From a virus (Duplodnaviria > Caudoviricetes): a DNA stretch of 56,319 nucleotides. The number at the start of each line of letters is the position of its first letter. Positions within the stretch are counted from its first letter, which is position 1. This document shows, piece by piece, positions 35,240 to 51,894 of the stretch. Under the pieces are notes generated by a model, which made no database searches, had not been told where the DNA came from, and saw only the letters and a program-made list of their open reading frames with translations. The stretch spans positions 1 to 56,319 of the IMG/VR virus record IMGVR_UViG_3300020478_000009; one strand, written 5' to 3'. The translations under genes were made by a program, and so were the position numbers.

Positions 35240-35643
35240 GCGTTCTTGATGAAGTCGGCACTTATCTTGCCGCAAATGTAAGCGATACAACTCTCACACT
35301 GGGAACAAATCTTTTCTTGGGAAGGCTTCCTGATTCTCCTGATACTTGCGTTTCGCTTCAGGAGACTGGTGGTTTAGCTCCAGTAGATACAATGTCAGAT
35401 AACACGGCACCTGTTATGGAACGCCCGACAATACAAGTTTTAGTAAGAGCAGTAGCTTATTCAGATGGAAGAGCTTTAATTAAAGATTGTTTCGATAAAG
35501 CTAATCTAGTCTGTAACGAAGATTTATCTAGCGTGCGGTATGAACGCATTGAAGCGATTCAATCACCGTTTCCTGTTTACCGGGATAGCCAAGACCGAGC
35601 CGTATTTTCTGTAAACTTTATTTGTCATAAGACTATTTCATAA
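35236..35643 (+). CDS. Tail terminator protein
   Basis: LFLGRLPDSPD, PTIQVLVRA, QSP..D..DR..FSVNF. Confidence 0.75.
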   Translation: MSVLDEVGTYLAANVSDTTLTLGTNLFLGRLPDSPDTCVSLQETGGLAPVDTMSDNTAPVMERPTIQVLVRAVAYSDGRALIKDCFDKANLVCNEDLSSVRYERIEAIQSPFPVYRDSQDRAVFSVNFICHKTIS

Positions 35644-35906
35644 TGTCCCTACTTGATCCTTATGGTGAAAACACTAAACCTGAACACAAACGTTTAACAC
35701 GGCTTAAAGTCAGGTGTGGTAATTGTGGAAGGCTGTTAGCTGAACGAGTAACAGCGCCTTGGACTATTAAATGTTCACGTTGTAAATGTGTTAACGAATC
35801 GGCTCCTTCGATACCGGCTCCTAAAGAATTGTCTGAAGAAGCGGCTTTAAAAGTAACTACTGCTCGAAAAGAATCTATAAATAACTCAGAGAGGTCAAAC
35901 AAGTGA
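35643..35906 (+). CDS. Mu Com-like zinc-finger protein (putative translational regulator)
   Basis: VRCGNCGRLLA...IKCSRCKCVN signature. Confidence 0.78.
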   Translation: MSLLDPYGENTKPEHKRLTRLKVRCGNCGRLLAERVTAPWTIKCSRCKCVNESAPSIPAPKELSEEAALKVTTARKESINNSERSNK

Positions 35907-35930
35907 TAAAGTTTGAGAGAACTTACATCA

Positions 35931-35964
35931 GTGACCTTCGTGTCCGCATGTGACCTTCGTGTCT
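35931..35964 (+). promoter_or_regulatory. Four GTGWCC-type hexamers (GTGACCTTCGTGTC x2), candidate Com-like binding site
   Basis: Direct repeats 25 bp after the Com-like gene, in the leader of the 36008 gene. Confidence 0.6.
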
Positions 35965-36007
35965 TATTTGGTTAGGCGTAAAGTCTCATGCACTATAAGG
36001 AGGCAAG

Positions 36008-36379
36008 ATGCCTAAGTATATTGTGACAGGAGGAGAACACGGAACCTCCGGTATTAACTATAAAGATGAACGTTACGAACCCGGAGATACCGTTGAAATA
36101 GCTAATCCTAAAGGGCTTTGGTTAATCAAAGAAGGCTACCTCGAATTAGCATCTGAAGCTGAAAAGCGTAAAACTGCTGAAGCTAAAGCAGAAGCAGAAG
36201 AAAAAGCTAAAGCTGATGCTCAAATTGAAGCTGAAGAACAGCTTGAACGTGCAAGAAACGACAAAGGACATTTTATTCCTGATGATCCTTCTACTCCTGA
36301 TGTAAATGAAGCTTATGTAACCAAAGAAGAAGCTGAAGCTCCTGAAGAAGCTGACGCTGAAACAACAGGAGGTAAGTAA
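36008..36379 (+). CDS. Hypothetical virion-associated protein
   Basis: YEPGDTVE..WLIKEGYLE and RARNDKGHFIPDDPSTPDVNEAY motifs; SD AAGGAGG. Confidence 0.65.
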   Translation: MPKYIVTGGEHGTSGINYKDERYEPGDTVEIANPKGLWLIKEGYLELASEAEKRKTAEAKAEAEEKAKADAQIEAEEQLERARNDKGHFIPDDPSTPDVNEAYVTKEEAEAPEEADAETTGGK

Positions 36380-37140
36380 TGCCAACATTTGTTCATGGTA
36401 AAGGAACCAAGGTTTATGTTGATGAGTTTGATTTGTCAACATATTTCCAGTCCGCAGACGTAACGTTAGAAAACGCAACATCAGATATAACTGCTTTTGG
36501 AGCTACTTCACGTTCGTTTCTTTTGGGATTAGCTAATGGCACTCTTTCATTAGGTGGAATGTGGTCAGGTGATACTGATGGTTCTGACGAAGAACTTCAA
36601 GCTCTACTGGGAAGCACCACGACACCAGTCGTGACAGTTTGTGAAGATGCTGGAACTATAGGCAATTCATCGACAGTCGCTAAAGCACACGAAACGAGTT
36701 ACACGATTTCTAATCCAGTGGGTGACGTTTCAACGATTACCGCTGATTTTCAGGGATCAACTGATGCAGTAAGTAATCTTACTTATGGTGTAGCAGGCGC
36801 AAAGCAGTTAACAACTGGCGCTTCGATAGCTTTTGGTTCGCTGGGTAATCTCACAGGTGTAGATAACAGTGCTTCAAGCACTAATGGTGGTGTAGGAGTT
36901 CTTCATGTGCCTGCAAATACTATTGGTGGTGGCGCAACAACAATAAAAATTCAACATGATTCATCCTCCGGCTTCGGCTCGGCGGCTGATCTCATAACGT
37001 TCACATCTGTCGGGGCTTCGACCAAGACAAGTGAGATGGTAGCCGTATCGGGAACAATAAATCGTTACGTTCGAGCTACTGCAAGTACAGCCGGAAGTTC
37101 CGGCGCAATCACCTTTATGGTGTCGTTAGCAAGGTTCTAG
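36379..37140 (+). CDS. Tail tube-like protein with C-terminal extra domain
   Basis: MPTFVHGK, DITAFGATSRSF..GL; paralogous to the next gene. Confidence 0.7.
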   Translation: MPTFVHGKGTKVYVDEFDLSTYFQSADVTLENATSDITAFGATSRSFLLGLANGTLSLGGMWSGDTDGSDEELQALLGSTTTPVVTVCEDAGTIGNSSTVAKAHETSYTISNPVGDVSTITADFQGSTDAVSNLTYGVAGAKQLTTGASIAFGSLGNLTGVDNSASSTNGGVGVLHVPANTIGGGATTIKIQHDSSSGFGSAADLITFTSVGASTKTSEMVAVSGTINRYVRATASTAGSSGAITFMVSLARF

Positions 37141-37151
37141 GAGGACTATAA

Positions 37152-37559
37152 ATGCCAACATTTGTACACGGTAAGTCAACTGACTTTGAGCTTGATGATA
37201 CAGGCGGAACTTCACGTTCGCTTGCTAACACGCTCACTTCAGTAGATTTTCCTGAAACTATAGATACAGCCGAAACAACTGCTTTCGGTGCAACTTCACG
37301 TTCATATATCGTGGGGCTTCGTTCAGCAACCATTTCAGTCTCAGGACTGTGGGATGCCACTGTTGATGGTTACATCATAGGAACAGAGCCAACAAGTAGG
37401 AGCTTTATATTTGGTCCTGCTGGTAGCACAAGTGGTAATGTGAAATACACAGGTGAGTGTATTCTCACTAATTATTCAATCAGCAATCCTGTAGGCGATG
37501 TGGTGACATACACCCTTGATCTTCAGGTAACTGGTGATGTCACAAGAGGAACTTATTAA
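37152..37559 (+). CDS. Major tail tube protein
   Basis: AETTAFGATSRSYIVGL, PVGDVVTY..DLQVTG; SD AGGAGG. Confidence 0.8.
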   Translation: MPTFVHGKSTDFELDDTGGTSRSLANTLTSVDFPETIDTAETTAFGATSRSYIVGLRSATISVSGLWDATVDGYIIGTEPTSRSFIFGPAGSTSGNVKYTGECILTNYSISNPVGDVVTYTLDLQVTGDVTRGTY

Positions 37560-37596
37560 AATAAGTAATTAACAACTAGACGAAGGAGTGACCGAA

Positions 37597-38028
37597 GTGT
37601 CCAAACTTAGTGAAAAAATTAAAGCTGTCGATGACAGCAGTGTTACATTGTATGAGATTCCCGAATGGGGAGTCACAGTAGAAATCCGTTCAATTACGGC
37701 TAGATCACGCGCACGTTTCTTTGCGGAAATATCTAACGAAGATGGTACGGTTGGTTTCAACGCTGATCCTGACCGTATTGAAGGCATGTGGTGGCACGTT
37801 ATTTCTAAAACTTGTTTCGATCCTGAAAACGGCGAACCTGTTTTTGAAGATGGCGATAAAGAATGGCTATTTGAACGTAACGCACTTGTAATAAACCAAC
37901 TAGCTGAACAGTGTATGGCTGTTTCCGGATTAACAGGAGATGCCATTGATGAAGCGGGAAAAGTCTCCTTGGTTTCCCCAACCGACAAGGATGGAGAAAC
38001 CCCGAAAGACGATTCTACTTCAGGTTAG
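37597..38028 (+). CDS. Tail assembly chaperone (gpG-like)
   Basis: IPEWGVTVEIRS, DPENGEPVF; GTG at 37597 is 8 nt after SD AAGGAG. Confidence 0.8.
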   Translation: MSKLSEKIKAVDDSSVTLYEIPEWGVTVEIRSITARSRARFFAEISNEDGTVGFNADPDRIEGMWWHVISKTCFDPENGEPVFEDGDKEWLFERNALVINQLAEQCMAVSGLTGDAIDEAGKVSLVSPTDKDGETPKDDSTSG

Positions 38029-38183
38029 CGAGAGAGCTTGGCATGACTGTATCCGAACTCCTAGATCGCATGAGTAGTGCCGAGATGACAGAATGGGCGG
38101 CGTTGTTTAAAATCGAAGCCGAAGAAGCCGCTCACAATAATCGTGTATCCAGTTCTCGAACTAACATGAGATCGAGAAGGTGA
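37956..38183 (+). CDS. -1 frameshift extension (gpGT-like) of the tail chaperone
   Basis: Slippery G GGA AAA at 37956-37962; -1 frame reads RRFYFRLARELGMTVSELLDRMSSAEMTEWAA and ends 3 nt before the tape measure gene. Confidence 0.82.
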   Translation, partial: GKSLLGFPNRQGWRNPERRFYFRLARELGMTVSELLDRMSSAEMTEWAALFKIEAEEAAHNNRVSSSRTNMRSRR

Positions 38184-38186
38184 TAG

Positions 38187-41100
38187 ATGGCAACTAAAGT
38201 AGCTGAACTCGTAGCTTCCCTGCGTTTAGACGCTAAGGAATTTTCACAGGGTGTTAAAGAAGCTGAAAGCAAATTAACAGATTTCGGTAAGAAAGCGACT
38301 AAAACTGGTCGCAAGCTAACTATGGCAGTAACTCTGCCTATGGCTGGAGCCGCCGCTGGAGCGATTAAAGCCGCTTCAGATTTTGAAACTTCAATGACGA
38401 AGATTCAAAGCATGGTTGGTTTGTCTGCTGATACTGTTCAAGCTTTCGAGAAAGACGTTCTTCGTTTATCAGGAGAAACAGCACAAGCACCTAAAGAGTT
38501 AGCTGATGCGATGTTCTTTATCACTTCGGCTGGTTTACGAGGAGCTACAGCAGTTGAGGCGCTAGAAGCTTCCGCTAAAGCGGCGGCGGTAGGAATGGGT
38601 GACGCTCAGGTAGTCGCTGATGCGGTAACGAACGCTATCAACGGTTACGGTTCAGCTAACATTACTGCCGCTGAAGCCACTGATATTCTCGCTAAAACAG
38701 TTGAACAAGGTAAAGCATCGGCTGAAGATTTGGCTCCCCAGTTCGGTCGTCTTATTCCTATGGCGGCAGAGTTAGGAATAGAGTTTGGACAAGTTGGTGG
38801 CGGTTTAGCTTTCCTGACTAGAGCGTCAGGTAACGCTTCGCAATCAACCAGTTCTTTACGAGGTATTCTTCGTACTCTTATTAAGCCATCTCAGCAAGCC
38901 CGCGAGACTCTTTCAGATGTCGGTTTAAGTATCGAGGATCTTAGAGTAGCGGCGGGTGAAGACATGCTGGGCGCTCTTATGAAGATGCGCGCAACGTTGG
39001 AAGCTAACGGCGAAGAGATGTCTAAAGTGTTTGAAGATTCTGAAGCGTTAGCTGGTGCTTTACAGTTGACTGGAACTGCCGCAGGTGAAGCCGCTGGTGT
39101 TATGGATGAGATGACACGCGCTTCAGGGACTTTAAGTCGAGGCATGGCGGCGGTGCAGGAAACTTCCGGATTTAAGATGAAACAGGCAATGACTGATTTC
39201 AAAGTCGTAATGATTGAGCTTGGAGACAAGCTGATTCCAGTGGTTGTTCCATTGATTCAGAAGTTAGCGAACTTTGTTGGCGATCTCGCAGACAAGTTCG
39301 ACAATCTTTCACCAGTAATGAAGAAAGTTGTAGCTAGTTTTGCTGGGTTTGCGGTTGCCGCAGGACCGGCGCTTATGGCTATCGGGAGTATGTCTCGCGG
39401 TTTGGGCGCATTGTCAAAAATGGGACAAGGTGTAACAGGAGTTCTCACAGGTGGTGGTAAAGTTGGCGGTTCAGGACTGTTAAAGACTTTAGGTAAGTTA
39501 GGACCAGCGTTGAAAACTCCGCATGGAGCGGCAGTTGCTTTAGCGGCTGTTGGTGTTGGTACTGCTTTAACGCTATGGCGGAAGCGTGGTAAAGAAGCGC
39601 AAGAACGCATGGAAACTCTTCGTGCTGAACTCGTTGAAGCTGGCGATGAATCAGCTATGTTCGCAGGAAAAGTGGAAGGTCTTACTGAACGTTTAGAAGC
39701 TTTAGCGGAGACAACGAAGGAAGCAACTGAAGAAGGTTTTGACAAGTTTAACGGTTCACAGGCGTTGCTTGCGAATGTTATTGATCAGGATGTTCGACCA
39801 GCGTTTGCTAGGTACATAACTGATCTAGACCATCATCAAGAAGCGATAATGCAGGGTTCTGACAGATACGAAGAACTCCAAGATCAGCTTCGTGATTATG
39901 ACCACATGCTTGATAAGAACCTTGAGCTTTTGAGACAAAACTCTGATCTTTTCGGTGAGAACGCTGATTCGATTATTAAAGCAGTAGAAGCCGGTGATTT
40001 GGAAATAAGCACTCTTAAAAAGATGTTAGATGCGATAGACGAAACCGCTGACGCTCACGATGACATGATCAAAGAGAACGACAAGCTTGCTAAAAAGTGG
40101 TTAGAAAACGAAAAAAATATCATCAATTACGTTACTGCTTTGGATGAGGCAACTGTTCAAGAAATTGAAGCTTTAGAAAAGAAAGGGCAATACACAGAAG
40201 CCGTTAAATTAGCTATTGATGCTATTGCGGAAGCTGAACAAGCTCAGATTGACGAAGCTGAAGCGGCGGCAAAAGCGGCGATAGAAGCAGAACGTGTCGC
40301 AACCGAATTTCAGAATGCACGTTTTGGTGTAAGCGAATTTACTGGCGCTGTTGATGACAGCACAGACAGCCTTGTTGTCGGTGCTACTGCTTTGAAAGAT
40401 TACAGTAGTGAAGCTTCTACCCTGTCAGAGATATTAAGTGATCCTGCCGCTGGTTTAGATTCTGCTACGCGATCATTTATGGCGGCGGCTCAAGCGTCAG
40501 CGACATTAGGCGGAGGTGTGAAAAGCGGAATTTTTGCTCACACCGAAGATTTAATGGACATGACAATCAAAATCAACAAAGAAAACGCAGACAAACTTGA
40601 GGCTGAAGAACAGCTTAAAACTAATTTAGAGGAACAAAAAGTTCTTTTAGATGAGCAGAACCGGATACGCAGGGAAGCCAACAAAATGGTGAAAGCCATG
40701 CAGTCAGCACAGAATGATGTTAAGAGCGCCCTGAAAGCTCAGAAACAAGCCGAACAGGATATAGCTGATATTCAGGCAGAGATAGAAGATAACGCCGCTG
40801 AACAGCTTGTAAACCTCGCTGAGATAGAAACAATTAACGCTCGTATTCTTGAACTCCAAGAGCAAAGCAACAATGAGTCTTTCAAAAGCGCAGAGTTTGT
40901 TAGTGCTGTAACTCAGGAATGGGATAAACAGCGTCTTGCTGTAATGAATCTTGAAGAGAAGATAGCCAAGTTGCAGGCAGAAGCAACAGCGGAACCTCCT
41001 GACACAGCGGCGGCGAAAGAACTGGTAAGACAGAAGAAGAATCAAATCATGGTTTTGGATGATTTAGTTCACGAAGTCAATGATGCTGAACAGGCTCTTA

Positions 41101-42212
41101 TTGATTTAGATTTGATTACTGAAGATTATGCTAGAGGTTCTGATGTTGGTATTCGCGAAGCTCAACAGTTTGTGCGTCTTGAAAGACAGTTACGTGAAAC
41201 TCAGCAAGCTTACGAAGATGGTGAAGCAACTGTTCTTGATGTTTTGCAAGCCGAAGAAGCTTTAAATCAAGTTACAGACGATTTAGGGCAAAGCTTTGAT
41301 GATTTAAGAAAAGCTGAAAACGAGTTAGCTGACGCTCAAGAAGCGTTATCGAAACTTGAAGAAGAAGGTCGCAAGATACAAGAAGCTAAAGAAAAGACTG
41401 CCCTTGAATTAAAGATAGCTACTGAAGATTTGCGTTTAGCTACAAAGATTCAAAGCGAAGAAGAGTTGATGGCTATTAAGGTTGGTGAAGAGAAAGCCAA
41501 GCTTGATGAGCAAATCGCAGGGCTTGTAGAAGATAAAACAGCGATTGAAGAAAAGAACGCTGATCTAGCGGCGAGAAGAATCATTTTGGATTCTGCTTTG
41601 GTTGGCGCTACGCAAGCTAAAAAAGCGGCTGACGAGGAACTTTATTATGCTCAACAGCGACTTGCTGAAGTAATGGCGGAAGTTAATCGTTTAGCTGAAG
41701 AGGAAGAAGGAATCTTTACAAAGATTAAAGATTTGATTCACGCTGTAACCGGCGAGTTCCGAGAACTTAAAGATTTACTTAAAGACGGCTTTACTTCTCC
41801 AAGCGGAGGAGGTGCGAGCATTTCTATGGGCGCAAGCGGCGATCCTACGGTAACAGTTCCATCAGGACCTACTACTCCTACCGCTCCTTCTGACGCTGAT
41901 CTTTTAGCTGAGGCTGTAGCGGCTGGCGGAGGCGATTGGCTTACACATCTAAGCACTCTTTCTCCGGCAGAAATGGCAGAAATGACAGACGCTTATCATG
42001 CCATAGCCGCAATACAAGGCGGAGGTGGCAGAAGCTTTGGCGGAACCGCTCAGGGAAGTGCTGGTAATGTCAATTTAACAATAAATGTTGAAGGTTCAGT
42101 TATTACCGAAGATGATCTTTTAAATAACATAAATCTTGGACTTCAACATAAGATTGTGTCCTCCGGTGATCAGTTCACTAATATAGGCGCAACTGTGGAT
42201 TATTCGAGTTAG
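38187..42212 (+). CDS. Tape measure protein
   Basis: 1341 aa, helical and Ala-rich, TP901-type core; follows the chaperones. Confidence 0.92.
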   Translation: MATKVAELVASLRLDAKEFSQGVKEAESKLTDFGKKATKTGRKLTMAVTLPMAGAAAGAIKAASDFETSMTKIQSMVGLSADTVQAFEKDVLRLSGETAQAPKELADAMFFITSAGLRGATAVEALEASAKAAAVGMGDAQVVADAVTNAINGYGSANITAAEATDILAKTVEQGKASAEDLAPQFGRLIPMAAELGIEFGQVGGGLAFLTRASGNASQSTSSLRGILRTLIKPSQQARETLSDVGLSIEDLRVAAGEDMLGALMKMRATLEANGEEMSKVFEDSEALAGALQLTGTAAGEAAGVMDEMTRASGTLSRGMAAVQETSGFKMKQAMTDFKVVMIELGDKLIPVVVPLIQKLANFVGDLADKFDNLSPVMKKVVASFAGFAVAAGPALMAIGSMSRGLGALSKMGQGVTGVLTGGGKVGGSGLLKTLGKLGPALKTPHGAAVALAAVGVGTALTLWRKRGKEAQERMETLRAELVEAGDESAMFAGKVEGLTERLEALAETTKEATEEGFDKFNGSQALLANVIDQDVRPAFARYITDLDHHQEAIMQGSDRYEELQDQLRDYDHMLDKNLELLRQNSDLFGENADSIIKAVEAGDLEISTLKKMLDAIDETADAHDDMIKENDKLAKKWLENEKNIINYVTALDEATVQEIEALEKKGQYTEAVKLAIDAIAEAEQAQIDEAEAAAKAAIEAERVATEFQNARFGVSEFTGAVDDSTDSLVVGATALKDYSSEASTLSEILSDPAAGLDSATRSFMAAAQASATLGGGVKSGIFAHTEDLMDMTIKINKENADKLEAEEQLKTNLEEQKVLLDEQNRIRREANKMVKAMQSAQNDVKSALKAQKQAEQDIADIQAEIEDNAAEQLVNLAEIETINARILELQEQSNNESFKSAEFVSAVTQEWDKQRLAVMNLEEKIAKLQAEATAEPPDTAAAKELVRQKKNQIMVLDDLVHEVNDAEQALIDLDLITEDYARGSDVGIREAQQFVRLERQLRETQQAYEDGEATVLDVLQAEEALNQVTDDLGQSFDDLRKAENELADAQEALSKLEEEGRKIQEAKEKTALELKIATEDLRLATKIQSEEELMAIKVGEEKAKLDEQIAGLVEDKTAIEEKNADLAARRIILDSALVGATQAKKAADEELYYAQQRLAEVMAEVNRLAEEEEGIFTKIKDLIHAVTGEFRELKDLLKDGFTSPSGGGASISMGASGDPTVTVPSGPTTPTAPSDADLLAEAVAAGGGDWLTHLSTLSPAEMAEMTDAYHAIAAIQGGGGRSFGGTAQGSAGNVNLTINVEGSVITEDDLLNNINLGLQHKIVSSGDQFTNIGATVDYSS

Positions 42213-42214
42213 AT

Positions 42215-43456
42215 ATGCCTGCCGCCGCGACTCTTAAAGTAACCGTTCGTTTTCAGACAAGCCCTTCTTTCGGTCCTAATCTTGTTTTAGGTGATTCAGC
42301 TTCACCCTTGGGAACAGGTGTTCTTTCTGATGCCGCTTCAACTCCTGTAGATATCACAAGTGTTGTTAACTCGGTTGCTATCAGGCGTGGGCGTAACCGT
42401 ATTCTAGATCGTTTCGATGCAGGCGCTTGTACTGTCACATTGACAGACACAACTGGTTTGTTTGATCCTGATAATGGAACTTACGCTAATGAAATTCTAC
42501 CAATGCGACAGTTGCAAATATCAGCTACTTATGGTGGCACTACATACACTCTTTATTCAGGTTTTATAGATGAGTGGGATTACACGTATCACCCCGGTGA
42601 GACAGCCGCGTTTATGACTATTAAAGCTGTTGACTCTTTTCGTTTGTTGAACCTGTCAACAGTGTCAACTGTTTCAGGTGCTACCGCAGGACAAACAACT
42701 TCAACTAGGTTAGGCAAAATTCTTGACATGATCACTTGGCCTGTTTCTTTGAGAGATTTTTCAACTGGAGCAGGACAAACAACGTGTCAAGCAGATTCAG
42801 GAACGACAAGAGATGTTCTTTCCGCTTGTCAAGCAGTTAATCAAACCGAGTTAGGGGCTTTCTTTTGTGAGACTAACGGTGTATTAAAATTCTATGATCG
42901 CGCTGGAATTATTGCTAAACACGCTGAAACTCCAACAGTATTCGATGACACTGGAGCAAACATCCAGTATCAGTCAGTTGATTTTGATATTGATGACACG
43001 ATCCTTGCTAATAATGTAACTGTTACACGTTCAGGTGGAACGGCTCAAAACGTTACTGATTCAACTTCTATAAGTGACTATTTTCAAAGGAACTACACTC
43101 GCACAGGTTTGTTGATGGACACGGATGCCGATGCTTTAAACCAAGCAACAACTATTCTCGCTAATCGTAAAGATCCGGAGCTAAGAATCGGAAGCATAAG
43201 CCTTGACGCTTACGGTGATGTTTCTAACAGAGTTACAGCGGCTTTAAATACGAAGATCATGGATCCCATTAAAGTTACTAGAACCCAACCGGGCGGTGGA
43301 ACGGTTTCTCGTACTCTTTCCGTACAGGGAATCGAACACACGATAAGACCTGATAGTTGGGTAACGACTTTTCAAACAGCAGAGAAGATATTGGATGGCT
43401 TCGTACTAGATAGCACCACAAGTGGTATCTTAGGTACGAACGCCTTGAGCTATTAA
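42215..43456 (+). CDS. Minor tail/baseplate hub protein
   Basis: IRRGRNR..FDAG, FDP.N; position after TMP. Confidence 0.7.
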   Translation: MPAAATLKVTVRFQTSPSFGPNLVLGDSASPLGTGVLSDAASTPVDITSVVNSVAIRRGRNRILDRFDAGACTVTLTDTTGLFDPDNGTYANEILPMRQLQISATYGGTTYTLYSGFIDEWDYTYHPGETAAFMTIKAVDSFRLLNLSTVSTVSGATAGQTTSTRLGKILDMITWPVSLRDFSTGAGQTTCQADSGTTRDVLSACQAVNQTELGAFFCETNGVLKFYDRAGIIAKHAETPTVFDDTGANIQYQSVDFDIDDTILANNVTVTRSGGTAQNVTDSTSISDYFQRNYTRTGLLMDTDADALNQATTILANRKDPELRIGSISLDAYGDVSNRVTAALNTKIMDPIKVTRTQPGGGTVSRTLSVQGIEHTIRPDSWVTTFQTAEKILDGFVLDSTTSGILGTNALSY

Positions 43457-43467
43457 GGAGCAAAACA

Positions 43468-44298: not shown

Positions 44299-44307
44299 GA
44301 GGAAAAT

Positions 44308-44682: not shown

Positions 44683-44684
44683 CA

Positions 44685-45380
44685 ATGCCGGATGTTCCAC
44701 CAAGTAAGTATCCTGTAGCTATACAAGGCGGTTCGATTTCACCTAGTGACAACTGGGTGAATCAAATGAGCGATACCGATTACATTGACGAAGCTGTTGT
44801 TCTGTTAGACACCGCTACTGTTACTGGTAGTTCCACTTCAGATATTACATTTACTTCAAACCTCTATGGTCAGAACGATTGGCGCAGATATGAACAACTC
44901 AGATGGGTTTGGTACGCCGATATAGATAACAGTTACGGAACTGGTATTGATTACACTTATATTGCCGCTCAGTTGGGTCCATATCCGACTTCTACTCCGT
45001 ATTCAGCGAACTATGGAACAATGATGTATGGTCGAAATCCAAATACTGGAGGTGAAGTTTGGAACGCCGCTTTAGCAGGTCCCGCTATTTATTGCGGCAT
45101 TTTAAGCCGAGACACTTCTTATCGAGGGAACTGTGTGATCATGGATTTCTATACAGGTCATGGGATGAATAAGCAAGGTTCTTTAGCGAGTCTTGCAGGC
45201 GGTAAAGAAGCTGGAGGTGTTGCAACAGGTAGTGTTGCTATTACTACTCCTGAACCTATTATGATAGCGAGGTTCATCTGTTATGTTCAGACTGGTACAT
45301 TAACTACTTTTGCGGTAGGAACTACAGTAAGTATGTATGGTTTCTTCGGGAATGATGGTGGAACAGGAGATTGGGAATAA
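44685..45380 (+). CDS. Beta-rich putative receptor-binding paralog 1
   Basis: ITFTS...GTTVSMYG pattern shared across the array. Confidence 0.6.
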   Translation: MPDVPPSKYPVAIQGGSISPSDNWVNQMSDTDYIDEAVVLLDTATVTGSSTSDITFTSNLYGQNDWRRYEQLRWVWYADIDNSYGTGIDYTYIAAQLGPYPTSTPYSANYGTMMYGRNPNTGGEVWNAALAGPAIYCGILSRDTSYRGNCVIMDFYTGHGMNKQGSLASLAGGKEAGGVATGSVAITTPEPIMIARFICYVQTGTLTTFAVGTTVSMYGFFGNDGGTGDWE

Positions 45381-45955
45381 TGGGTGCGGCGGCTTATACA
45401 CATTTAATAACAAAAACTGCCAGCACTTACGTTGGCAATTTCTATTTTGAAAACATACCGCAAACATACCGCACGATAATGGGTATTGTGACTGGTCAAT
45501 GCACTACTTCTTCAAGTGGTGGAGAGAACAATATGGATATATGTATCAATCCGGCTGGTGGTAACACTTCAGGTTATACGTCTCCTGATTTTGGTTGGAA
45601 TAAAGGTTTTCAAGTTGCAGGAACAAGTGGACAAACTGTATACAACGGCTACAATTCTTCAAGCTCTTTTGTAGGTTTGTTTTACAATTCTTTTTGGTTC
45701 ACACATTGTGACGATGTGCAAAATACTTGTATATTCCATTTACACGATTACGCTAACGCTAACACGATAACAACAATTTCGTGGCAGGCAGGCTCAAATT
45801 ATAGAGGCACTTCTGATAGTGCTTCTGCAATGCCGGGGTTTGCTTTGAGTTGTGGTGGCACAAACCAAGTAGGTGCGACAACAAGCTTAACTGTAGGACC
45901 AAGCGGTAGTTTTCAATCAGGGGCTAGAATCTCTCTTTACGGAATGGCATCCTAA
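45380..45955 (+). CDS. Beta-rich putative receptor-binding paralog 2
   Basis: FENIPQTY...DYAN...GARISLYG. Confidence 0.6.
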   Translation: MGAAAYTHLITKTASTYVGNFYFENIPQTYRTIMGIVTGQCTTSSSGGENNMDICINPAGGNTSGYTSPDFGWNKGFQVAGTSGQTVYNGYNSSSSFVGLFYNSFWFTHCDDVQNTCIFHLHDYANANTITTISWQAGSNYRGTSDSASAMPGFALSCGGTNQVGATTSLTVGPSGSFQSGARISLYGMAS

Positions 45956-46500
45956 TGGCGAGTGTAGAAGTTATAGACTCCGCAAGTGGTACAGGAGCGG
46001 CTGTATCTATGTCACTTACTGGAATTTCAGGCGACTATAAACACATTCAAGCGTGTATGTTTCTTAGAACAAGTAACGCTTCCGAAACCGACACTTTTTG
46101 GATGACGGTAAACAGTTCGACTGCGAGTCAGTATTATATAGCTGGTATAAATTCAGGATTTAATTCCACAGGACCTCCTTGGCCATTTGCAGAAACATCC
46201 GCAGGAACTACGATGTATGCGGCATTAGGACCTATGGTTTCGGGTAATGGTGCGACTGCTGGCGCTCATACACCTATTGAAATGTGGTTTGTTAACTATG
46301 CGGATAGCACTACGAAAAACTGTGGGATCATAACTTGGAGAGCTGGAGATAATACAAACAATTCAACTAATTCAAAAAATCCTGTTGGTGTCGCTGGCTG
46401 GTATTCAGACGTAGCAGAAGCTGTAACAAGTATTCAGATAGGTTGCGGTAATAATATAGATACCGATTCGTGGATCACACTTTACGGTTGGAGAGGTTAA
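45955..46500 (+). CDS. Beta-rich putative receptor-binding paralog 3
   Basis: ISGDYKHI...NYAD...AVTSI...ITLYG. Confidence 0.6.
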   Translation: MASVEVIDSASGTGAAVSMSLTGISGDYKHIQACMFLRTSNASETDTFWMTVNSSTASQYYIAGINSGFNSTGPPWPFAETSAGTTMYAALGPMVSGNGATAGAHTPIEMWFVNYADSTTKNCGIITWRAGDNTNNSTNSKNPVGVAGWYSDVAEAVTSIQIGCGNNIDTDSWITLYGWRG

Positions 46501-46502
46501 AC

Positions 46503-47243
46503 ATGGGAGACGGATCAGCTTACAATTTTTACAGCAGTATAAATGGCACATGGGATGGCAGATACAATCCTTCTGAAATTCGTGACAGGACAGCTAATCA
46601 TCGTGCCGCTGGTTACGGAATGGTGCTTATAGATTCTGCTACTGTGTCAGGTTCAACCACTCACGCTGTGGAGTTTACGAGCATAACAGGTGATCCGATT
46701 AAAGATTTCAGAAGATACGGATTGCTGTGGGTTGTTGGTCACGTTCAAAACGATGATCCCACTTATGGACAAATGTATTATCATTACGCATGGGATAAAT
46801 ACAACAAAAACTATTATTACCACTCAATGTATTCGACAGTTACTAATGTTTCTACTGCTTGGGCTGGGCGTAATGGAACTTCGCCATATAACTATGGACG
46901 ATATGTTGATTGGTCTTACGGTGGGTTTTGGGCAGGTATGGTCGGTTCAAGCGATCAAACAGGTTCGGGTGCAGGTTCGACATCTGATAATTGGGGGATG
47001 ACTCAAGCATGGTTCTCAGGTTCTTCTAATAACAGAATTGGCGGTCAGGTGATGATGAGTCAATGCACTCAACTAAGTGATAATAGCACAAGCGGTTATT
47101 TAGTTAATTTTGTTGCAGGTCAAGTTTACGGTGACAAGATAGATTGTATTGTTGCTTTAGCGGAACAAATGACTGGAAGTCATGCATGGACAGCAGGTTC
47201 AACTTTTGAACTGTACGGCTATCCAAGAAACACGGTGTCATAA
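46503..47243 (+). CDS. Beta-rich putative receptor-binding paralog 4
   Basis: VEFTSI...GSTFELYG; resembles paralog 1. Confidence 0.6.
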   Translation: MGDGSAYNFYSSINGTWDGRYNPSEIRDRTANHRAAGYGMVLIDSATVSGSTTHAVEFTSITGDPIKDFRRYGLLWVVGHVQNDDPTYGQMYYHYAWDKYNKNYYYHSMYSTVTNVSTAWAGRNGTSPYNYGRYVDWSYGGFWAGMVGSSDQTGSGAGSTSDNWGMTQAWFSGSSNNRIGGQVMMSQCTQLSDNSTSGYLVNFVAGQVYGDKIDCIVALAEQMTGSHAWTAGSTFELYGYPRNTVS

Positions 47244-47812
47244 TGGCTACTGGGTATAAGAACTCGATGACATATTTAGGCACAACAACTGTTTATTATT
47301 GGGCGAGTACGGAATTTGATACAACGATTGCCAATTTGCTTCATGGTCAAAGTTGGGATCATCTACGAATGTTTATGGTAACTACTAACGCTCAGTCAAC
47401 TAATCAAATGGGATCTAATTTTGCAATAGAAATAAATGGTGATACGACAGCTAGTAATTATTTCAAAACTTTCTATTACACACAAGATGGGGGTTCAACT
47501 TTAACACATTCCACAGGACAGGATAACAACTGGTGGTTTAATGGACCTAGATATAATCTCACTTCAGGTACTTATCAGTCTTGGGGAGGTGATACGTTAG
47601 TAATAGGAGATTTCTATAACGTTAATTCATCAAGTTTGAAAACTGAATATAAAAGTAGGCAAATTCAAGCTGACAGAACGGCTAACTACTATTCAGGATT
47701 TACTCTAGGTATATGGGACAACACAGCGGCGGTAACAAGTATTAAGATTAAGACAACCGGCTATTTTATGACAGGTAGTTCGCTTACTTGGTATGGGTAT
47801 AATTCAGAATGA
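47243..47812 (+). CDS. Beta-rich putative receptor-binding paralog 5
   Basis: INGDTTASNY...WDNTAAVTSI...GSSLTWYG. Confidence 0.6.
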   Translation: MATGYKNSMTYLGTTTVYYWASTEFDTTIANLLHGQSWDHLRMFMVTTNAQSTNQMGSNFAIEINGDTTASNYFKTFYYTQDGGSTLTHSTGQDNNWWFNGPRYNLTSGTYQSWGGDTLVIGDFYNVNSSSLKTEYKSRQIQADRTANYYSGFTLGIWDNTAAVTSIKIKTTGYFMTGSSLTWYGYNSE

Positions 47813-48342
47813 GTGCTTCAAGTCCTTTTACAATAATGGAAACTGCTACAGGCACAGGTAGTGCTTCTGCTATTACGTTTAGTTCTATTCCGCAGACGTT
47901 CAAAAGTTTGATGATAGTAGGTCAAGTAAAATCAGATATAGCTACTGGCAATGACGGTTTTTATTTGACGGTTAATGGTGATGCTACGGTTTCTCATTAT
48001 TCAGGTAAGTCCACTTTTAATTACAACGGCACAATGTATTATCAGGATTATTACAGTAGTTACGCTGGTTGGTATGTTACAGCTATCCCTTCAGATGGTT
48101 GGTATGCTGACAAACTGGGTTGGATGGATGTTCTCATTCCGAATTACACGCAGAGCAGTAATTGGCAAACGATGCAAGTAGAAACAGGTATTCAAAACAC
48201 AAACACTACGGAATCAATGTTTGCTCAAGCAAATGGGGCTTGGACTAATTCAACGACAGCGGCAGTAACATCATTAACATTTACGTTAATGTCAGGGAAT
48301 TGGACTACAGACAGCAAAATAACTATGTATGGATTAGGATAG
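47809..48342 (+). CDS. Beta-rich putative receptor-binding paralog 6
   Basis: ITFSSIPQTFKSL...PNY...AAVTSL...ITMYG. Confidence 0.6.
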   Translation: MSASSPFTIMETATGTGSASAITFSSIPQTFKSLMIVGQVKSDIATGNDGFYLTVNGDATVSHYSGKSTFNYNGTMYYQDYYSSYAGWYVTAIPSDGWYADKLGWMDVLIPNYTQSSNWQTMQVETGIQNTNTTESMFAQANGAWTNSTTAAVTSLTFTLMSGNWTTDSKITMYGLG

Positions 48343-48350
48343 GAGACATT

Positions 48351-48644
48351 ATGGCAAATCCAATGAGATTAACAAATGAATCGGGTGAATGGAAAGAAGT
48401 CGAAATGACTGACGAAGAAGTCGCCCAAATGGAAAAAAGCAATGAAGAAGCTGATAAAAATATAGACAGTATCCGACCTGAACGTGACAGTCGATTAGAT
48501 CGGTCAGATTGGACGATTGGTAACGATTCACCACTTTCAACATCGAAACAGGATGAATGGAAAACATACAGGCAAAAATTAAGAGATTTACCTGCCGCAT
48601 TTTCTAAAGTTTCAGAAGTTGTGTGGCCGACACCACCAAGTTAA
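48351..48644 (+). CDS. Tail fibre assembly chaperone
   Basis: R.ERD..L..SDWT...W..YRQKLRDLP...WPTPP. Confidence 0.8.
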   Translation: MANPMRLTNESGEWKEVEMTDEEVAQMEKSNEEADKNIDSIRPERDSRLDRSDWTIGNDSPLSTSKQDEWKTYRQKLRDLPAAFSKVSEVVWPTPPS

Positions 48645-48647
48645 GAC

Positions 48648-49949
48648 ATGGCTTTTAATGGCAGGATAAACCCTAAACGGTTTAGGAGAGCGCAAGCTCA
48701 AGGTTATGCTCCTTTTGTTTGCGCCGCACCAACTAGTTGTGCCGTGTGGCGAGATGATGCTTCTTTGACTGTAACTTGGAAAGCGCCTGACACTAAAGGG
48801 CAGACTCTTGAAAGTTATGTTGTTTCGTATTCGAGCGATGGTGGTTCTAATTGGACTATTGCTTCAAGCTCAGTTTCATCGAGCGATACCGCTTATGACA
48901 TTACTGGTTTAACTAACGGCACTACATATATTTGTTCAGTTCAAGCGGTTACTTGGAAAGCAGGACTAAGGGGTTTAACTGGTAGTGTCGCACCTGCGGC
49001 ATCTATGAGTTATACAGTAACTGGAAGTCCTGACGAAGTTAAATACTACTCTGTGAATGACGCTGTTAATGGTGTCGGTTACAAGAAACAGTATGTCAAG
49101 TTTAACGCTTCAGGGAGTATATCTTTTACGACTAATCCGTCAAGTGTAAGTGTTACTGCCGCTGTTGTAGGCGGTGGAGGAGGAGCAGGTCGGACTGGTG
49201 GCTCATACGGCGGTGGCGGCGGTGGTGGTGGACAAAATGCAGAACACACCATAGGTCACCTCGATGTAACCAGTAACACACTTACGGTAACTGTTGGAGC
49301 CGGAGGAGCTTATGGTGGTAGCGCTGGAGATCCTTCTTCCGGTTCGGATTCAAGTATTACCAATTCAGGAGGAGCGGCAACCATTTACGGCAAAGGTGGA
49401 GGTCGTGGAGGAAACGGTTGGTCAGGCGCTAGTCCTCATGCTGGTTCTGCGAGTGGTAGTTCTTACGGTTCAGGTGGTGGTGGTATTTACAGCGGACAAA
49501 AAGGATACTCAGGTGGTGCGATTTACGGAAATAACGGAGGTGAAGGAGCCTCAAACTGGTCTTATGGAGCAAGAACAGCAGGCGCTGGTGGCGGCATGGG
49601 CGCTGTTGGTGGCAACGCATATGTCTATCCTTATGCGGGCGGTCAATCATACGGCGGTTACGGTGGTCAAGGTGTAACACGACAACACGGTGGCAGTTGG
49701 TTCAATATGGGTGGCGGCGGCGGTGGTGGAGGAATGTATAATTCCGGTGGAGCAGCATGGTTGTTTACCAGTTACGGTTACGGTGGCGGCGGCGCTGGGT
49801 ACTCAGGTGGCTATTACGGAGCCGCTCCGGTAACACCCCAAGGGGGTAATGGAACCGCAAATTACGGCGGTGGTGGTGGTGGCGGCGGCTACAGTAATGA
49901 TGGCGGTTCAGGTGGTTCAGGTACTGTTTTAATGAAGTGGGATGTGTAA
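48648..49949 (+). CDS. FN3 + glycine-rich domain tail protein
   Basis: VTWKAP..Y.V..GLTNGTTY (FN3); VVGGGGG and GGSGGSG.V Gly-rich domain. Confidence 0.75.
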   Translation: MAFNGRINPKRFRRAQAQGYAPFVCAAPTSCAVWRDDASLTVTWKAPDTKGQTLESYVVSYSSDGGSNWTIASSSVSSSDTAYDITGLTNGTTYICSVQAVTWKAGLRGLTGSVAPAASMSYTVTGSPDEVKYYSVNDAVNGVGYKKQYVKFNASGSISFTTNPSSVSVTAAVVGGGGGAGRTGGSYGGGGGGGGQNAEHTIGHLDVTSNTLTVTVGAGGAYGGSAGDPSSGSDSSITNSGGAATIYGKGGGRGGNGWSGASPHAGSASGSSYGSGGGGIYSGQKGYSGGAIYGNNGGEGASNWSYGARTAGAGGGMGAVGGNAYVYPYAGGQSYGGYGGQGVTRQHGGSWFNMGGGGGGGGMYNSGGAAWLFTSYGYGGGGAGYSGGYYGAAPVTPQGGNGTANYGGGGGGGGYSNDGGSGGSGTVLMKWDV

Positions 49950-50464
49950 TGGCACATTTCGCTGAGGTAGATGAAAGCAACATAGTTTTACAAATTGTGG
50001 TACTTAGCAATACTGAAATCGCAGATGGTCGTTTCGCTTCAGGTGAATCTGAACAGAAAGGGATTGATTTCTTAAACAATCTATTTCCTGATTCTAAAAC
50101 TTGGGTGCAAACTTCGTACAACGAAAACTTTAGAGGAAAGTATGCGAGGATCGGTGGGACTTACGATAAAGATTTAGATAAGTTCATACCAATAAAACCG
50201 TTTGATTCTTGGGTTTGGAATAACTCGGAAAACAACTGGGAAGCACCAGTTCAACCGCAACCTGTTGGTCAAATATGGAATGAAGAAAAAGGCGAGTGGG
50301 AAATCCCTGAAAAGCCTTCAGATGTTCCCCCTTCATGGGAATGGGATTCAACGAACGGTGGATGGATACCACCTGACGGTATTGGTGTCCCTGAATTTGA
50401 AGAAGGTAAGATTAAAGAGTGGGATGAGGAGAACAGACAATGGACTGTTCGTGATGTAACATAG
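49949..50464 (+). CDS. Conserved partner of Gly-rich tail proteins
   Basis: MAHFAE, WVQTSYN..FRGKYA.IG.TYD, Trp repeats. Confidence 0.7.
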   Translation: MAHFAEVDESNIVLQIVVLSNTEIADGRFASGESEQKGIDFLNNLFPDSKTWVQTSYNENFRGKYARIGGTYDKDLDKFIPIKPFDSWVWNNSENNWEAPVQPQPVGQIWNEEKGEWEIPEKPSDVPPSWEWDSTNGGWIPPDGIGVPEFEEGKIKEWDEENRQWTVRDVT

Positions 50465-50468
50465 TTGA

Positions 50469-51218
50469 ATGAACATTCCTACGACTAAAAGCACAGTTCA
50501 ACTGGACTTATTGCATCCACGATTCGTGACAAGACTTGAAGCTTTTTTTCAAGATCCGCAAATCAAAGGCAAGGTAGCTGTTTCATCCGGTTGCAGAAGC
50601 TACGCCGATCAGAAGTATTACTATGATCGTTACAAGTCAGGTCGTAGCACCATTCTTGCGGCTAATCCTGATAGGCGTTTCGGTGAGAAAGCTTTAGATG
50701 GTTTGGGTATATGGCGAGGCTCATGGCACATGCAACAGCTTGACGGCTGGTGTTACGCAGTGGACCTCGCTCAAATGGATAAGTCGATTAGCAAACCGGA
50801 AATAAATCGCATAGCCACAATGTATGGTGTCCAGCCAACTGTTGCTTCTGAGTGGTGGCATCACCAGCCTCGTAAATCAACTGACTGGTTTGAAGCTCCA
50901 GCTTTGAAGGGTGAATCAACTGAAGCCCCTGATGCTCCTGAACCTAAGATTGATTGGGCGGCGATAGCGGCGGCGATTAAGAAGCAACGTCAACAGGTTA
51001 GAAAAACTCCGTTGACTAAAGGCTCAAAAGGTGACGCTGTTAAAACCATTCAGACTTGCATGGGAAATCAGGGAATTAGATGCGGTGTAGCTGACGGTAT
51101 CTTTGGTCGTAAGACAGCTACAGCGGTTAAACAACTTCAAAAGAACCATCGTCTACCTGTAAATGGTATTGTTGACATTAAGACCTTTGATGTTTCTTTT
51201 AAAGAAAGAGGAAGATAA
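50469..51218 (+). CDS. Endolysin: M15-type Zn peptidase + peptidoglycan-binding domain
   Basis: SGCRSY..Q, SWH..AVD, EWWH; C-terminal DGIFG..T..AVKQLQ...L..GIVD. Confidence 0.82.
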   Translation: MNIPTTKSTVQLDLLHPRFVTRLEAFFQDPQIKGKVAVSSGCRSYADQKYYYDRYKSGRSTILAANPDRRFGEKALDGLGIWRGSWHMQQLDGWCYAVDLAQMDKSISKPEINRIATMYGVQPTVASEWWHHQPRKSTDWFEAPALKGESTEAPDAPEPKIDWAAIAAAIKKQRQQVRKTPLTKGSKGDAVKTIQTCMGNQGIRCGVADGIFGRKTATAVKQLQKNHRLPVNGIVDIKTFDVSFKERGR

Positions 51219-51562
51219 TGACTGATCATGCGTGGCTTAGTGTCACAAATAATTCAAACGTAACTGAAGTGCGTTCACTTCAGGAAGCGTTGGTTGCTAA
51301 AGGACACCGTATCGGTATAGATGGGCGATTCGGTATTAGCACTCAGCGTTGTGTGGTTGAGTTTCAGAACGAAAACAATCTCACGCCTGATGGTAACGTT
51401 GGTCCTGCAACTTGGGCCGCTCTAGAGGGTGGCGCTAAGAAAAAGAAAGCAGAACCTAAAGTAGAAGCTGAAGAAAAAGCTGAGGAGAAAAAACCTGCAA
51501 CTAAGAAAGCCCCAGCTAAGAAAGCTCCAGCTAAAAAAGCTCCAGCTAAGAAAGGCTCCTGA
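51218..51562 (+). CDS. Peptidoglycan-binding protein with Lys-rich PAKK tail
   Basis: LQ..L..IDGRFG..T..FQ..LTPDG.VGPATW; KKAPA x3. Confidence 0.75.
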   Translation: MTDHAWLSVTNNSNVTEVRSLQEALVAKGHRIGIDGRFGISTQRCVVEFQNENNLTPDGNVGPATWAALEGGAKKKKAEPKVEAEEKAEEKKPATKKAPAKKAPAKKAPAKKGS

Positions 51563-51831
51563 TGTTAGGAAACCTTAAATTAGATTGGGGACAAATCCGG
51601 GATGTGGCGGAAAGAGCCATATCCACTTATGCACAAACGGTAGTTGGTCTTTATTTGGCTGGTGGTTTAACAGAAATTTCTATTTCTGGAGTAAAAACTT
51701 TGGCTATTGGTGCGTTACCTGCGGCATTGTCTATCGTAAAGAGCTATGCTTGTAGTATTCTTCCGATTGGGGATGCTTCGGCTTCGCTCTTAAAGGCTAG
51801 TCCGAATAATGCGGAACTACCGGAAGACTAA
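51562..51831 (+). CDS. Holin (r1t-like)
   Basis: AERAISTYAQ, two hydrophobic segments, ALSIVKS; in lysis cassette. Confidence 0.75.
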   Translation: MLGNLKLDWGQIRDVAERAISTYAQTVVGLYLAGGLTEISISGVKTLAIGALPAALSIVKSYACSILPIGDASASLLKASPNNAELPED

Positions 51832-51859
51832 TTAAGCTATAAATTTTATCTAAAAAGTA

Positions 51860-51894
51860 GTGTCCTGTGTGACCTGATGGAGTCACAATGGACA
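51860..51894 (+). promoter_or_regulatory. GTGTCC-N3-GTGACC in a hairpin covering SD and start codon
   Basis: TGTCC..TGTGAC pairs with GTCACA..GGACA across GGAG and ATG 51888. Confidence 0.55.

Follow-up and report, generated by a model that had tools for sequence, protein, structure and literature searches.

Paired hexamers at three gene starts of a siphovirus genome as candidate RNA operators of a Com-type zinc-ribbon protein

The IMG/VR virus record IMGVR_UViG_3300020478_000009 is a complete siphovirus record of 56,319 bases with direct terminal repeats, which we analyzed over its full length and refer to as the window. It raises the question of what a gene resembling com of phage Mu does next to tail genes, and whether this gene is linked to a pair of GTGWCC hexamers that recurs at three gene starts. 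A preliminary description of the sequence had seen in them a translational regulon of three sites. Our answer, to which we give a probability of about 70%, is that the hexamer pairs are mini-hairpin RNA operators for a phage Com-type protein at three conserved places, with activation at site 3 and probably at site 1 and occlusion at site 2. What the analysis shows is the statistics and conservation of the motif, its covariation, the alternative structures, its co-occurrence with Com and the place of the ORF in the Com family; the identity of the binder as Com, and whether each site activates or represses, are what we infer.

Hexamer pairs, mini-hairpins and the Com-type protein

Both strands of the window were scanned for GTGWCC-N3-GTGWCC (GTGWCCNNNGTGWCC). 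This gave three matches, all on the plus strand and all at gene starts, compared to a mean of 0.03 and a maximum of 1 in shuffled sequences; a count of 3 was reached in 0 of 100 shuffles. As the preliminary description had expected, the pair was not common within coding sequences, and all the hexamers it quoted were found at their coordinates. Site 1a (35931..35945, plus strand; GTGACC-TTC-GTGTCC, in RNA GU[GAC]CUUCGU[GUC]C, with the stem bases in brackets) lies in the 5' untranslated region (5'UTR) of the gene starting at 36008 (gene 36008) and scored 23.8 bits with a covariance model (CM) of the motif. After an intervening GCAT it is followed by a second tandem mini-hairpin, site 1b (35950..35964, plus strand; GTGACC-TTC-GTGTCT, RNA GU[GAC]CUUCGU[GUC]U); this fourth copy ends in GTGTCT and is outside the exact pattern. 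Site 2 (37588..37602, plus strand; GTGACC-GAA-GTGTCC, RNA GU[GAC]CGAAGU[GUC]C; 27.3 bits) is located at the start of the tail assembly chaperone gene, and site 3 (51860..51874, plus strand; GTGTCC-TGT-GTGACC, RNA GU[GUC]CUGUGU[GAC]C; 22.5 bits), in which the pair is flipped, precedes the gene starting at 51888. Lone GTGWCC hexamers showed no strand bias (17 on the plus and 19 on the minus strand), 7 of the 17 plus-strand copies being within the three clusters, and plus-strand GTGWC pairs at a spacing of 9 to 10 nt occurred in these clusters only. The clusters lie in the few intergenic gaps of the late region, beside a Shine-Dalgarno (SD) sequence, and the three sites are outside coding sequences, apart from two codons at the beginning of the chaperone gene. 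Over the window as a whole, Rfam 15 gave 0 matches at gathering score, and in 35850-36050 it gave 0 at E values of 10 or less.

Within each pair, the middle three bases of one hexamer are complementary to those of the other, so that the two can form a mini-hairpin, a feature that the preliminary description had missed. It has the form 5'-GU[GxC]C-N2-4-GU[Gx'C]C-3', with a stem of 3 (sometimes 4) bp, a C-G closing pair and a loop of about 6 nt that begins with C and ends in GU. The fourth bases of the hexamers are A/T at sites 1 and 2 and T/A at site 3, and C/G, G/C or T/G in relatives. The relatives also harbor compensatory variants (GTGCTC..GTAGCC, i.e. GCU/AGC) as well as 4-bp variants whose fourth pair is A-U or G-C (GTGCCA-cattGT-TGGCC, i.e. 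GCCA/UGGC, and GTGCCG-ctaGT-CGGCC, i.e. GCCG/CGGC). When 35 instances, hand-picked from recognized sites, were aligned, 105 of 105 cells paired (middle pair AU 23, CG 9, UG 2 and UA 1), while slid registers paired in 7-55%; the covariation score was reached in 0 of 500 shuffles. The junction between neighboring hairpins, which provides an internal control, was mostly non-complementary (T/C in the relatives L002, L004, L005 and L099). Furthermore, RNAalifold recovered the same stem de novo from 10 site-1 UTRs, its pairs being GC in 10, AU in 5 and CG in 4 with one misaligned, and CG in 7 and UA in 3. U·G pairs were found 5 times in the instances tallied, and the sole C/A case was off-site. Since U·G pairs occur and the matches all lie on one strand, RNA rather than DNA is indicated.

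The candidate binder is the 87-amino-acid (aa) open reading frame (ORF) at 35643..35906 (plus strand), which adjoins the head-tail connector genes 3' of the tail terminator gene (35236, plus strand). As the preliminary description had claimed, it encodes a Com-like zinc finger: it matched Pfam PF10122 (Zn_ribbon_Com) at 27.1 bits, above the cut-off of 22.9 (E = 2.9e-6), reached 27.4 bits in a six-frame PF10122 search of the window, and matched phrog_6417, annotated 'translational regulator', at 2.3e-7. On these profile matches the ORF is a member of the Com family. The protein contains VRCGNCGRLLAERVTAPWTIKCSRCK and has CxxC motifs at residues 25-28 and 44-47 (RCGNCGRLL...IKCSRCK), followed by a variable C-terminal tail. 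The cysteines C25, C28, C44 and C47, which are the predicted zinc ligands, and the flanking R, L-A, P and R-C-K were invariant in ten relatives, the C-terminal tails of which differ in length. A profile of the Com alignment gave no significant match among PDB sequences (best E = 0.059, to generic zinc ribbons). In relatives with 66% GC (L021, L022 and L025, 662-847; G005, 22315-22500), an insertion of about 12 residues, RCNNPECAGPAIERGGKPALIAEL, follows the first zinc knuckle; these homologs score under the Pfam threshold, and the site-2 hairpin is kept nonetheless.

The mini-hairpin can be compared to the RNA that Com is known to recognize. In a study using systematic evolution of ligands by exponential enrichment (SELEX), a bipartite GAG(N)2CC...GAG(N)2CC flanked a stem of 3-4 bp, the loops had six residues and the closing pair was C-G without exception; what Com binds is CC(N)2-3GAG in the loop, the GA dinucleotide is crucial for the Com proteins of Mu and Haemophilus sputorum, and the native Mu site, GAAUGCCUGCGAGCAUCCC, adjoins a translation-inhibition structure with the mom GUG start (PMC6483171). 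In the same notation, the Mu site reads GA[AUGC]C-UGC-GA[GCAU]CC, the designed RNA I GA[GAAC]C-AGA-GA[GUUC]C and the window GU[GAC]C-UUC-GU[GUC]C. Both systems combine a small CCCC zinc-ribbon protein of the PF10122 family with a short hairpin that has a 3' C, a C-G closing pair and a 6-nt loop with the motif C-N3-G-N; the same dinucleotide is repeated 5' of the stem strands, a GUG start is involved, and at site 3 of the window, as in Mu, the target overlaps a hairpin hiding the SD and the start. The H. sputorum SELEX RNA described there is similar in that it, too, is a bipartite direct repeat: the stem is made by the variable bases inside the units, which are complementary to each other, and CC-N2-3-G-N-G spans the loop. 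Its unit is GAG-NN-CC where the window has GUG-N-CC, with one variable base. However, the window differs from Mu in having GU for GA, a 3-bp stem, which is one pair shorter, and three or more candidate operators per genome instead of one. Its putative targets are tail-morphogenesis genes and a giant lipoprotein operon, whereas Mu's is a DNA-modification gene, and its Com gene lies in the structural module after the tail terminator, whereas Mu com is part of the com-mom operon. Additionally, the operator at site 2, unlike that of Mu, contains the start codon in an unstructured region, suggesting repression. The Mu arrangement of com directly upstream of mom or of a DNA-modification gene was not seen in the window, where no search was aimed at Mom homologs. 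Overall, the proposal of a Com-like protein with three sense-strand sites at translation starts is supported, as the sites are conserved and their architecture, judged from sequence, appears to be that of the Com SELEX target.

Conservation among relatives and co-occurrence with Com

Relatives were collected through the major tail protein, independently of the motif, yielding 25 contigs with 57-100% identity. All 23 that cover the chaperone start (23/23) carry (A)GGA-GTGACC-N3(4)-GTGTCC, at GC contents of 40 to 66%. Ten kinds of spacer were found (GAA, ACC, ACA, ACT, ATC, ATA, ATT, CAA, GTG and AAGA) and the flanks have diverged; at the same 23 loci the start codon is always GTG and the second codon always TCC. 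Relatives with 30-70% protein identity also have the motif at these three gene starts, with spacers that vary freely. At site 1, an array of GTGNCC units is present in the 5'UTR of the gene 36008 homolog in every lineage, and the second hairpin is mostly of the C-G type in relatives. Site-3 homologs precede the homologous gene in G003, G006, G008, G011 and G013, always before a protein of 142-153 aa followed by one of 987-1313 aa with a lipoprotein-like N terminus, and the genomic place of this operon varies. The covariance model, R1, was run on both strands of 7 genomes (363,703 bases) and gave 17 matches of at least 22.5 bits, all on the coding strand and all at sites 1-3; the next best, at 17.5 and 13.9 bits, were N4 variants of site 3, and the rest scored at most 13 bits. 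Pattern and CM scans of complete or long relatives placed the motif at the three homologous places and essentially nowhere else.

In IMG/VR, 315 stretches encode Com relatives and at least 119 carry the motif. Among 80 loci retrieved with the motif pattern, 51 start a chaperone homolog (21-99% identity). The cassette SD-GUGACC-NNN-GUG(start)UCC was also seen before a phrog_274/2-oxoglutarate (2OG)-Fe(II) oxygenase-like gene (G004 and L117) and several small ORFs; these non-tail loci are L037 (3533-4147, minus strand), L117 (1513-2133), L076, L055, L059 and L087.

We then compared the distribution of the motif with that of Com. By PF10122 or tblastn, a Com-type ORF was detected in G000-G008, G010, G011, G013 and G015, and weakly in G014. 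Among 79 new loci fetched through Com homology, 64 of 64 CM matches (E up to 1) were on the strand of Com and downstream of it. Where Com was at least 55% identical and at least 6 kb followed, 15 of 18 loci had a strong match and the other 3 had variants of 16.6-16.9 bits; under the same requirement for downstream sequence, strong matches were found at 2 of 5 loci with 45-55% identity and at 1 of 8 below 45%. On inspection, distant Com lineages proved to have the hairpin before the same genes, immediately 5' of the SD and with ATG or GTG as the start; their loops, N2 or N6, escape the model. The co-occurrence proposed at the outset was thus found in related phages: motif-bearing records carry Com, and two Com-less relatives lack the motif. 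One of these, G016 (major tail protein 37% identical), has no Com in place and no motif in a synteny of terminator, 109-aa ORF, two tail genes and chaperone. Its 109-aa ORF was not significantly similar to gene 36008 by BLASTP (E = 0.33), which makes G016 uninformative about gene 36008, and further members of the Com-less G016 clade were not found. The other, the complete genome of Microcystis phage Mae-JY09, gave 0 PF10122 matches and has no motif, and it keeps the synteny, including a 36008-like gene (58 aa, PG-D-VV-D-LP motif).

Among 50,697 phage records, the major tail protein matched 14 Arthrobacter phage records and Mae-JY09, and the window Com matched Arthrobacter phages only (11 records), in which it is 'hypothetical' or unannotated. 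In these cultured, harmless phages, the Com-type proteins include gp5 of Arthrobacter phage Ottawa, MDDAYTIDVAPRCRECGKLLAVNVARPWTIRCPRCK, and an unannotated 79-aa ORF of Arthrobacter phage Laroye, RPRCRKCGKLLAEKVTQPWVIGCGRCK, directly after the head-tail connector genes. The Laroye ORF corresponds to L303 2197-2436 (NC_041947.1, about 24696-24935) and overlaps the start of annotated gene 36; in Salgado and LiSara the Com-type ORF has no annotated feature, and in other cluster members it is a 'hypothetical protein'. Both Ottawa and Laroye have the flipped pair GAGAGA-GTGTCC-NNN-GTGACC at the chaperone start, and the annotated chaperone start of Laroye is the GTG of the second hexamer. This is the only clear copy in the two phages, in which equivalents of sites 1 and 3 were not identified. 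A megablast of 35000-38200 against cultured phages gave no match, and a scan of genome contigs with the major tail protein passed 1 of 71 stretches (L028), a weak and irrelevant one.

Blocks of genes are inserted between Com and the tail operon in some relatives: three minus-strand genes in L004 (760-2511), and in Ottawa (L291, 1.9-15.2 kb) an insert of about 13 kb before the tail operon that includes a nuclease and a HicA-like gene. A link between the modules that acts in trans would fit such blocks. The paper on cluster AL Arthrobacter phages reports 37 genes inserted between capsid and tail genes; in its main text, the terms 'zinc', 'translational' and 'GTGACC' occur 0 times each (PMC5513430). 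In the literature searched, no paper was found on Com-type proteins in tail operons or on this RNA motif.

Leader structures, proposed mode of action and alternatives

A stable leader structure is predicted at site 3. Here a putative translation-inhibiting hairpin (51858..51897, plus strand) has site 3 as its 5' arm and contains GGAG (51879-51882) and the ATG at 51888 in its 3' arm and loop; pairing involves 3 of the 4 bases of GGAG and, in the ATG, the G. The burial of these elements had been noted in the preliminary description, and it stood up to our analysis: the hairpin has a free energy of -18.4 kcal/mol (z = -3.8; 1 of 200 shuffles folds as well), and a stable site-3 leader hairpin was found in six lineages, at -18.4 to -23.1 kcal/mol (z of -3.8 in G000, -1.7 in G003, -2.85 in G006, -3.5 in G008, -2.2 in G011 and -2.6 in G013). 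In these, the hexamers pair with the SD and/or the start region through partners that differ by lineage. The long hairpin and the mini-hairpin use the same bases and are mutually exclusive; therefore, a protein capturing the mini-hairpin would expose the initiation region, as in the Mu model.

The situation at site 2 is different. A candidate recognition site overlapping or abutting a structure that sequesters SD and start, as in Mu, is present at site 3 and absent at site 2. Indeed, 19 distinct site-2 sequences were less structured than their shuffles (mean z = +1.17; 18 of 19 positive), and distant lineages behave likewise. Activation of the chaperone start by a Mu-type melting of a stem is therefore ruled out. 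The SD GAAGGAG (37582-37588) abuts the site, and the GUG at 37597, the likely chaperone start, consists of the loop GU and the first base of the 3' arm. Because the start codon sits in the loop and the region is unstructured, occlusion is favored, and we lean, by a modest margin, toward Com lowering chaperone translation in this way.

Site 1 consists of two tandem hairpins 45-75 nt upstream of the start. An alternative long-range stem, GCAUGUGAC/GUCUCAUGC (35946..35991, plus strand), for which the evidence is weak, would take the 5' half of hairpin 1b. In the minimum free energy (MFE) fold, at -23.5 kcal/mol, the CCUUC of the 1a loop also pairs with the SD. The pairing GCATGTGAC/GTCTCATGC put forward in the preliminary description is present in this fold, which, however, is not significant (z = -1.0; 30 of 200 shuffles as good). 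Single-sequence MFE folds of 19 site-1 UTRs had no long-range structure in common, and beyond hairpin a RNAalifold found in site-1 UTRs only an alternative stem, GGCCG/CGGCU. This stem is conserved in L002-type sequences (A4 columns 43-47 with 56-60), with an A-U compensation in L016; its loop presents GUGAC(N) and it overlaps the 3' arm of hairpin b. L002-type site 1 has another GUGCCC-like unit 5-8 nt before the SD. In the window, site 1 comes immediately behind the Com gene, as was also pointed out earlier, but this is incidental. In relatives, a distance of 0.8-3.8 kb separates it from Com, and it remains with the 5'UTR of the tail gene that follows; on this ground we rejected an autoregulatory element at the 3' end of Com.

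We thus propose the following. Com would be made from the end of the head-tail connector module and would bind the hairpins in trans on late mRNAs. Operator 1 would be the tandem pair of hairpins in the 5'UTR of the tail operon, which comprises gene 36008 and, coupled to it in translation, the major tail genes; operator 2 would be a single hairpin across the SD-start spacer and the GUG start of the chaperone, and operator 3 the hairpin just 5' of the SD of the operon that encodes the giant acidic lipoprotein and, before it, the 144-aa membrane protein. At site 3, and probably at site 1, the hexamers would otherwise be locked in a longer hairpin hiding the SD and the start; capture of the mini-hairpin by Com would open it and switch translation on, as Mu Com does at mom. 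At site 2, where inhibitory structure is missing and the start codon is in the recognized loop, Com would most likely lower chaperone translation. In doing so it may tune the stoichiometry of tail tube and chaperone.

A broader version of this proposal, to which we would give slightly less than an even chance, is that Com is a dual-mode master translational regulator across the lineage, from soil Arthrobacter phages to marine uncultured siphoviruses, reading a 15-nt code of GU-stem-C-N3-GU-stem-C. The tail-operon leader and the lipoprotein operon would be switched on and the chaperone turned down, coupling modules that are often kilobases apart, and the portable cassette would have been captured by moron genes such as the 2OG-oxygenase-like one.

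Other phage systems place RNA signals at translation starts. T4 RegA and the coat proteins of MS2 and PP7 (at the replicase start hairpin) are phage translational repressors that act at the initiation region, RegA on several mRNAs. They resemble the system proposed here, in which a phage protein would recognize a small RNA element that includes the start codon (site 2) and would act, like RegA, on several mRNAs, but they have an unrelated fold, and the window operator apparently also activates by structure switching. The start-associated sequences and their extended form (SAS/ESAS) of cluster K mycobacteriophages are short conserved motifs just upstream of many translation starts with a proposed role in translation. 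They differ from the window motif in sequence, in having no assigned trans factor and in their many more copies per genome, and we know of no hairpin covariation in them.

Several observations weigh against Com-bound operators. The fold at site 1 is no better than that of shuffles, and the form of its link to the SD is not conserved among relatives. A 3-bp stem is unstable alone, and single-sequence folding gave no mini-hairpin at sites 1 and 2. The hand-picking of the 35-instance alignment biases it toward pairing, and its outer pairs never vary; most A/T instances of the variant tally come from a scan pattern that fixes A and T. PF10122 found no Com in the motif-bearing G009 and G012, the former a contig that also lacks the terminator gene, so that its connector module is off the contig, and the latter a record from a different phage, 52% complete, that carries one motif copy. 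The negatives are two only, G016 being 70% complete, and the positives share one tail module, so that the co-occurrence is largely phylogenetically non-independent. Finally, a changed specificity of Com has to be assumed, because GU stands where GA is crucial.

This last point would also suit a different binder. The mini-hairpins might be real operators recognized by another phage protein, e.g. the product of gene 36008, whose homologs are as position-conserved as Com, or by a host RNA-binding protein or an RNase, the role of Com being unrelated. We consider this unlikely: Mae-JY09 keeps a 36008-like gene without Com and without the motif, the hairpins agree with the Com SELEX target in the lengths of stem and loop, in the closing pair and in the bipartite repeat, and the CM matches lie without exception (64/64) downstream of Com on its strand. 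The strand distribution also bears on the idea that the motif acts as duplex DNA, whether as part of a late promoter or as an operator or iteron to which a regulator binds. Direct repeats with a period of about 9 bp are iteron-like, and L004-type site 1 is where a promoter is needed, the upstream genes being on the opposite strand. However, all copies are on the sense strand (17/17 and 64/64), Watson-Crick and U·G covariation between hexamers has no meaning in duplex DNA, site 2 overlaps the SD and the start at a fixed phase and so cannot be the chaperone promoter, and neither a sigma-70-like promoter nor a terminator was found at the sites on the plus strand. An action on DNA thus seems to us highly improbable.

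The covariation is equally unexplained if the motif is a protein-independent initiation element, an extended SD or rRNA-pairing cassette favoring GUG starts. GGAGUGA resembles GGAGGUGA, which we take to be the complement of the 16S 3' end, and the site-2 cassette looks portable, as it precedes 2OG-oxygenase-like and other genes in relatives. However, the GGA prefix is missing at sites 1 and 3, which are 4-70 nt away from the SD; C-G variants (GUGCCC..GUGGCC) are unable to pair with that stretch of rRNA; and in distant lineages the hairpin precedes the SD of a gene that starts with ATG. On these counts we rejected extended pairing with the 16S 3' end as the main explanation and hold such an element to be very unlikely. 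Inherited sequence without function, or a chance pattern, is hardly credible: L001 and L013, which are close relatives, are near-identical around the sites, but the observed count was never reached in the 100 shuffles, and the hexamers are invariant while spacers, flanks and coding sequences diverge, down to about 30% protein identity and over 40-66% GC. Mini-hairpin operators of Com hence remain our preferred explanation.

Candidate target genes, neighboring genes and significance

The late genes of the window are all on the plus strand. The major head protein gene (32944, plus strand) lies upstream of the tail terminator and Com genes; further upstream, before the head genes, a 443-aa ORF (22107-23438) is followed by a 1573-aa ORF (23438-28159). 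The first gene of the tail operon, gene 36008 (36008..36379, plus strand; 123 aa), has a weak DUF7210 match; its stop and the start of the major tail gene overlap at 36379. The major tail protein has two paralogs in tandem, of 253 and 135 aa (36379-37140 and 37152-37559, plus strand), which match phrog_9522 and phrog_10528, and this tandem, with the same PHROGs matched, is kept in all relatives, including the Arthrobacter phages and Mae-JY09. They are followed by the tail assembly chaperone (37597..38028, plus strand; phrog_344 at 2.8e-13), the tape measure gene (38187, plus strand), baseplate/fiber genes, endolysin and holin. Just before the holin, two adjoining ORFs (50469-51218 and 51218-51562) both match endolysin PHROGs, apparently through the same peptidoglycan-binding region, and may represent a split or two-component endolysin.

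The putative target operon of site 3 (51888..56260, plus strand) encodes a 144-aa protein (51888-52322) with a membrane anchor at its C terminus and an overlapping giant protein (52319-56260). The latter, of 1313 aa, is hyper-acidic, with 335 D/E against 53 K/R and, in residues 800-1000, 96 D/E and 0 K/R; it matched no family in Pfam or PHROG. A lipobox-like LSVSC occurs about 70 residues into the listed ORF, and therefore the true start is probably later. Its homologs in relatives (987-1223 aa) have clear lipoprotein signals at the N terminus.

Until now, Com has been a curiosity of one protein and one target, Mu mom, with RNA recognition for which a complex has not been solved. Compared to Com-mom, the differences would be the other dinucleotide, the several operators, the structural-gene targets and, probably, two modes of action. 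The relatives supply naturally varied candidate targets for studying how a minimal zinc ribbon recognizes a 3-bp hairpin and how GA and GU are told apart, and the analysis flags small Com-type ORFs that are unannotated or 'hypothetical' in GenBank records. It also describes a putative cis-regulatory RNA motif that Rfam does not contain. The operator would explain the lineage-wide GTG start and TCC second codon of the chaperone, and the system represents a candidate case of post-transcriptional control of tail-assembly stoichiometry.

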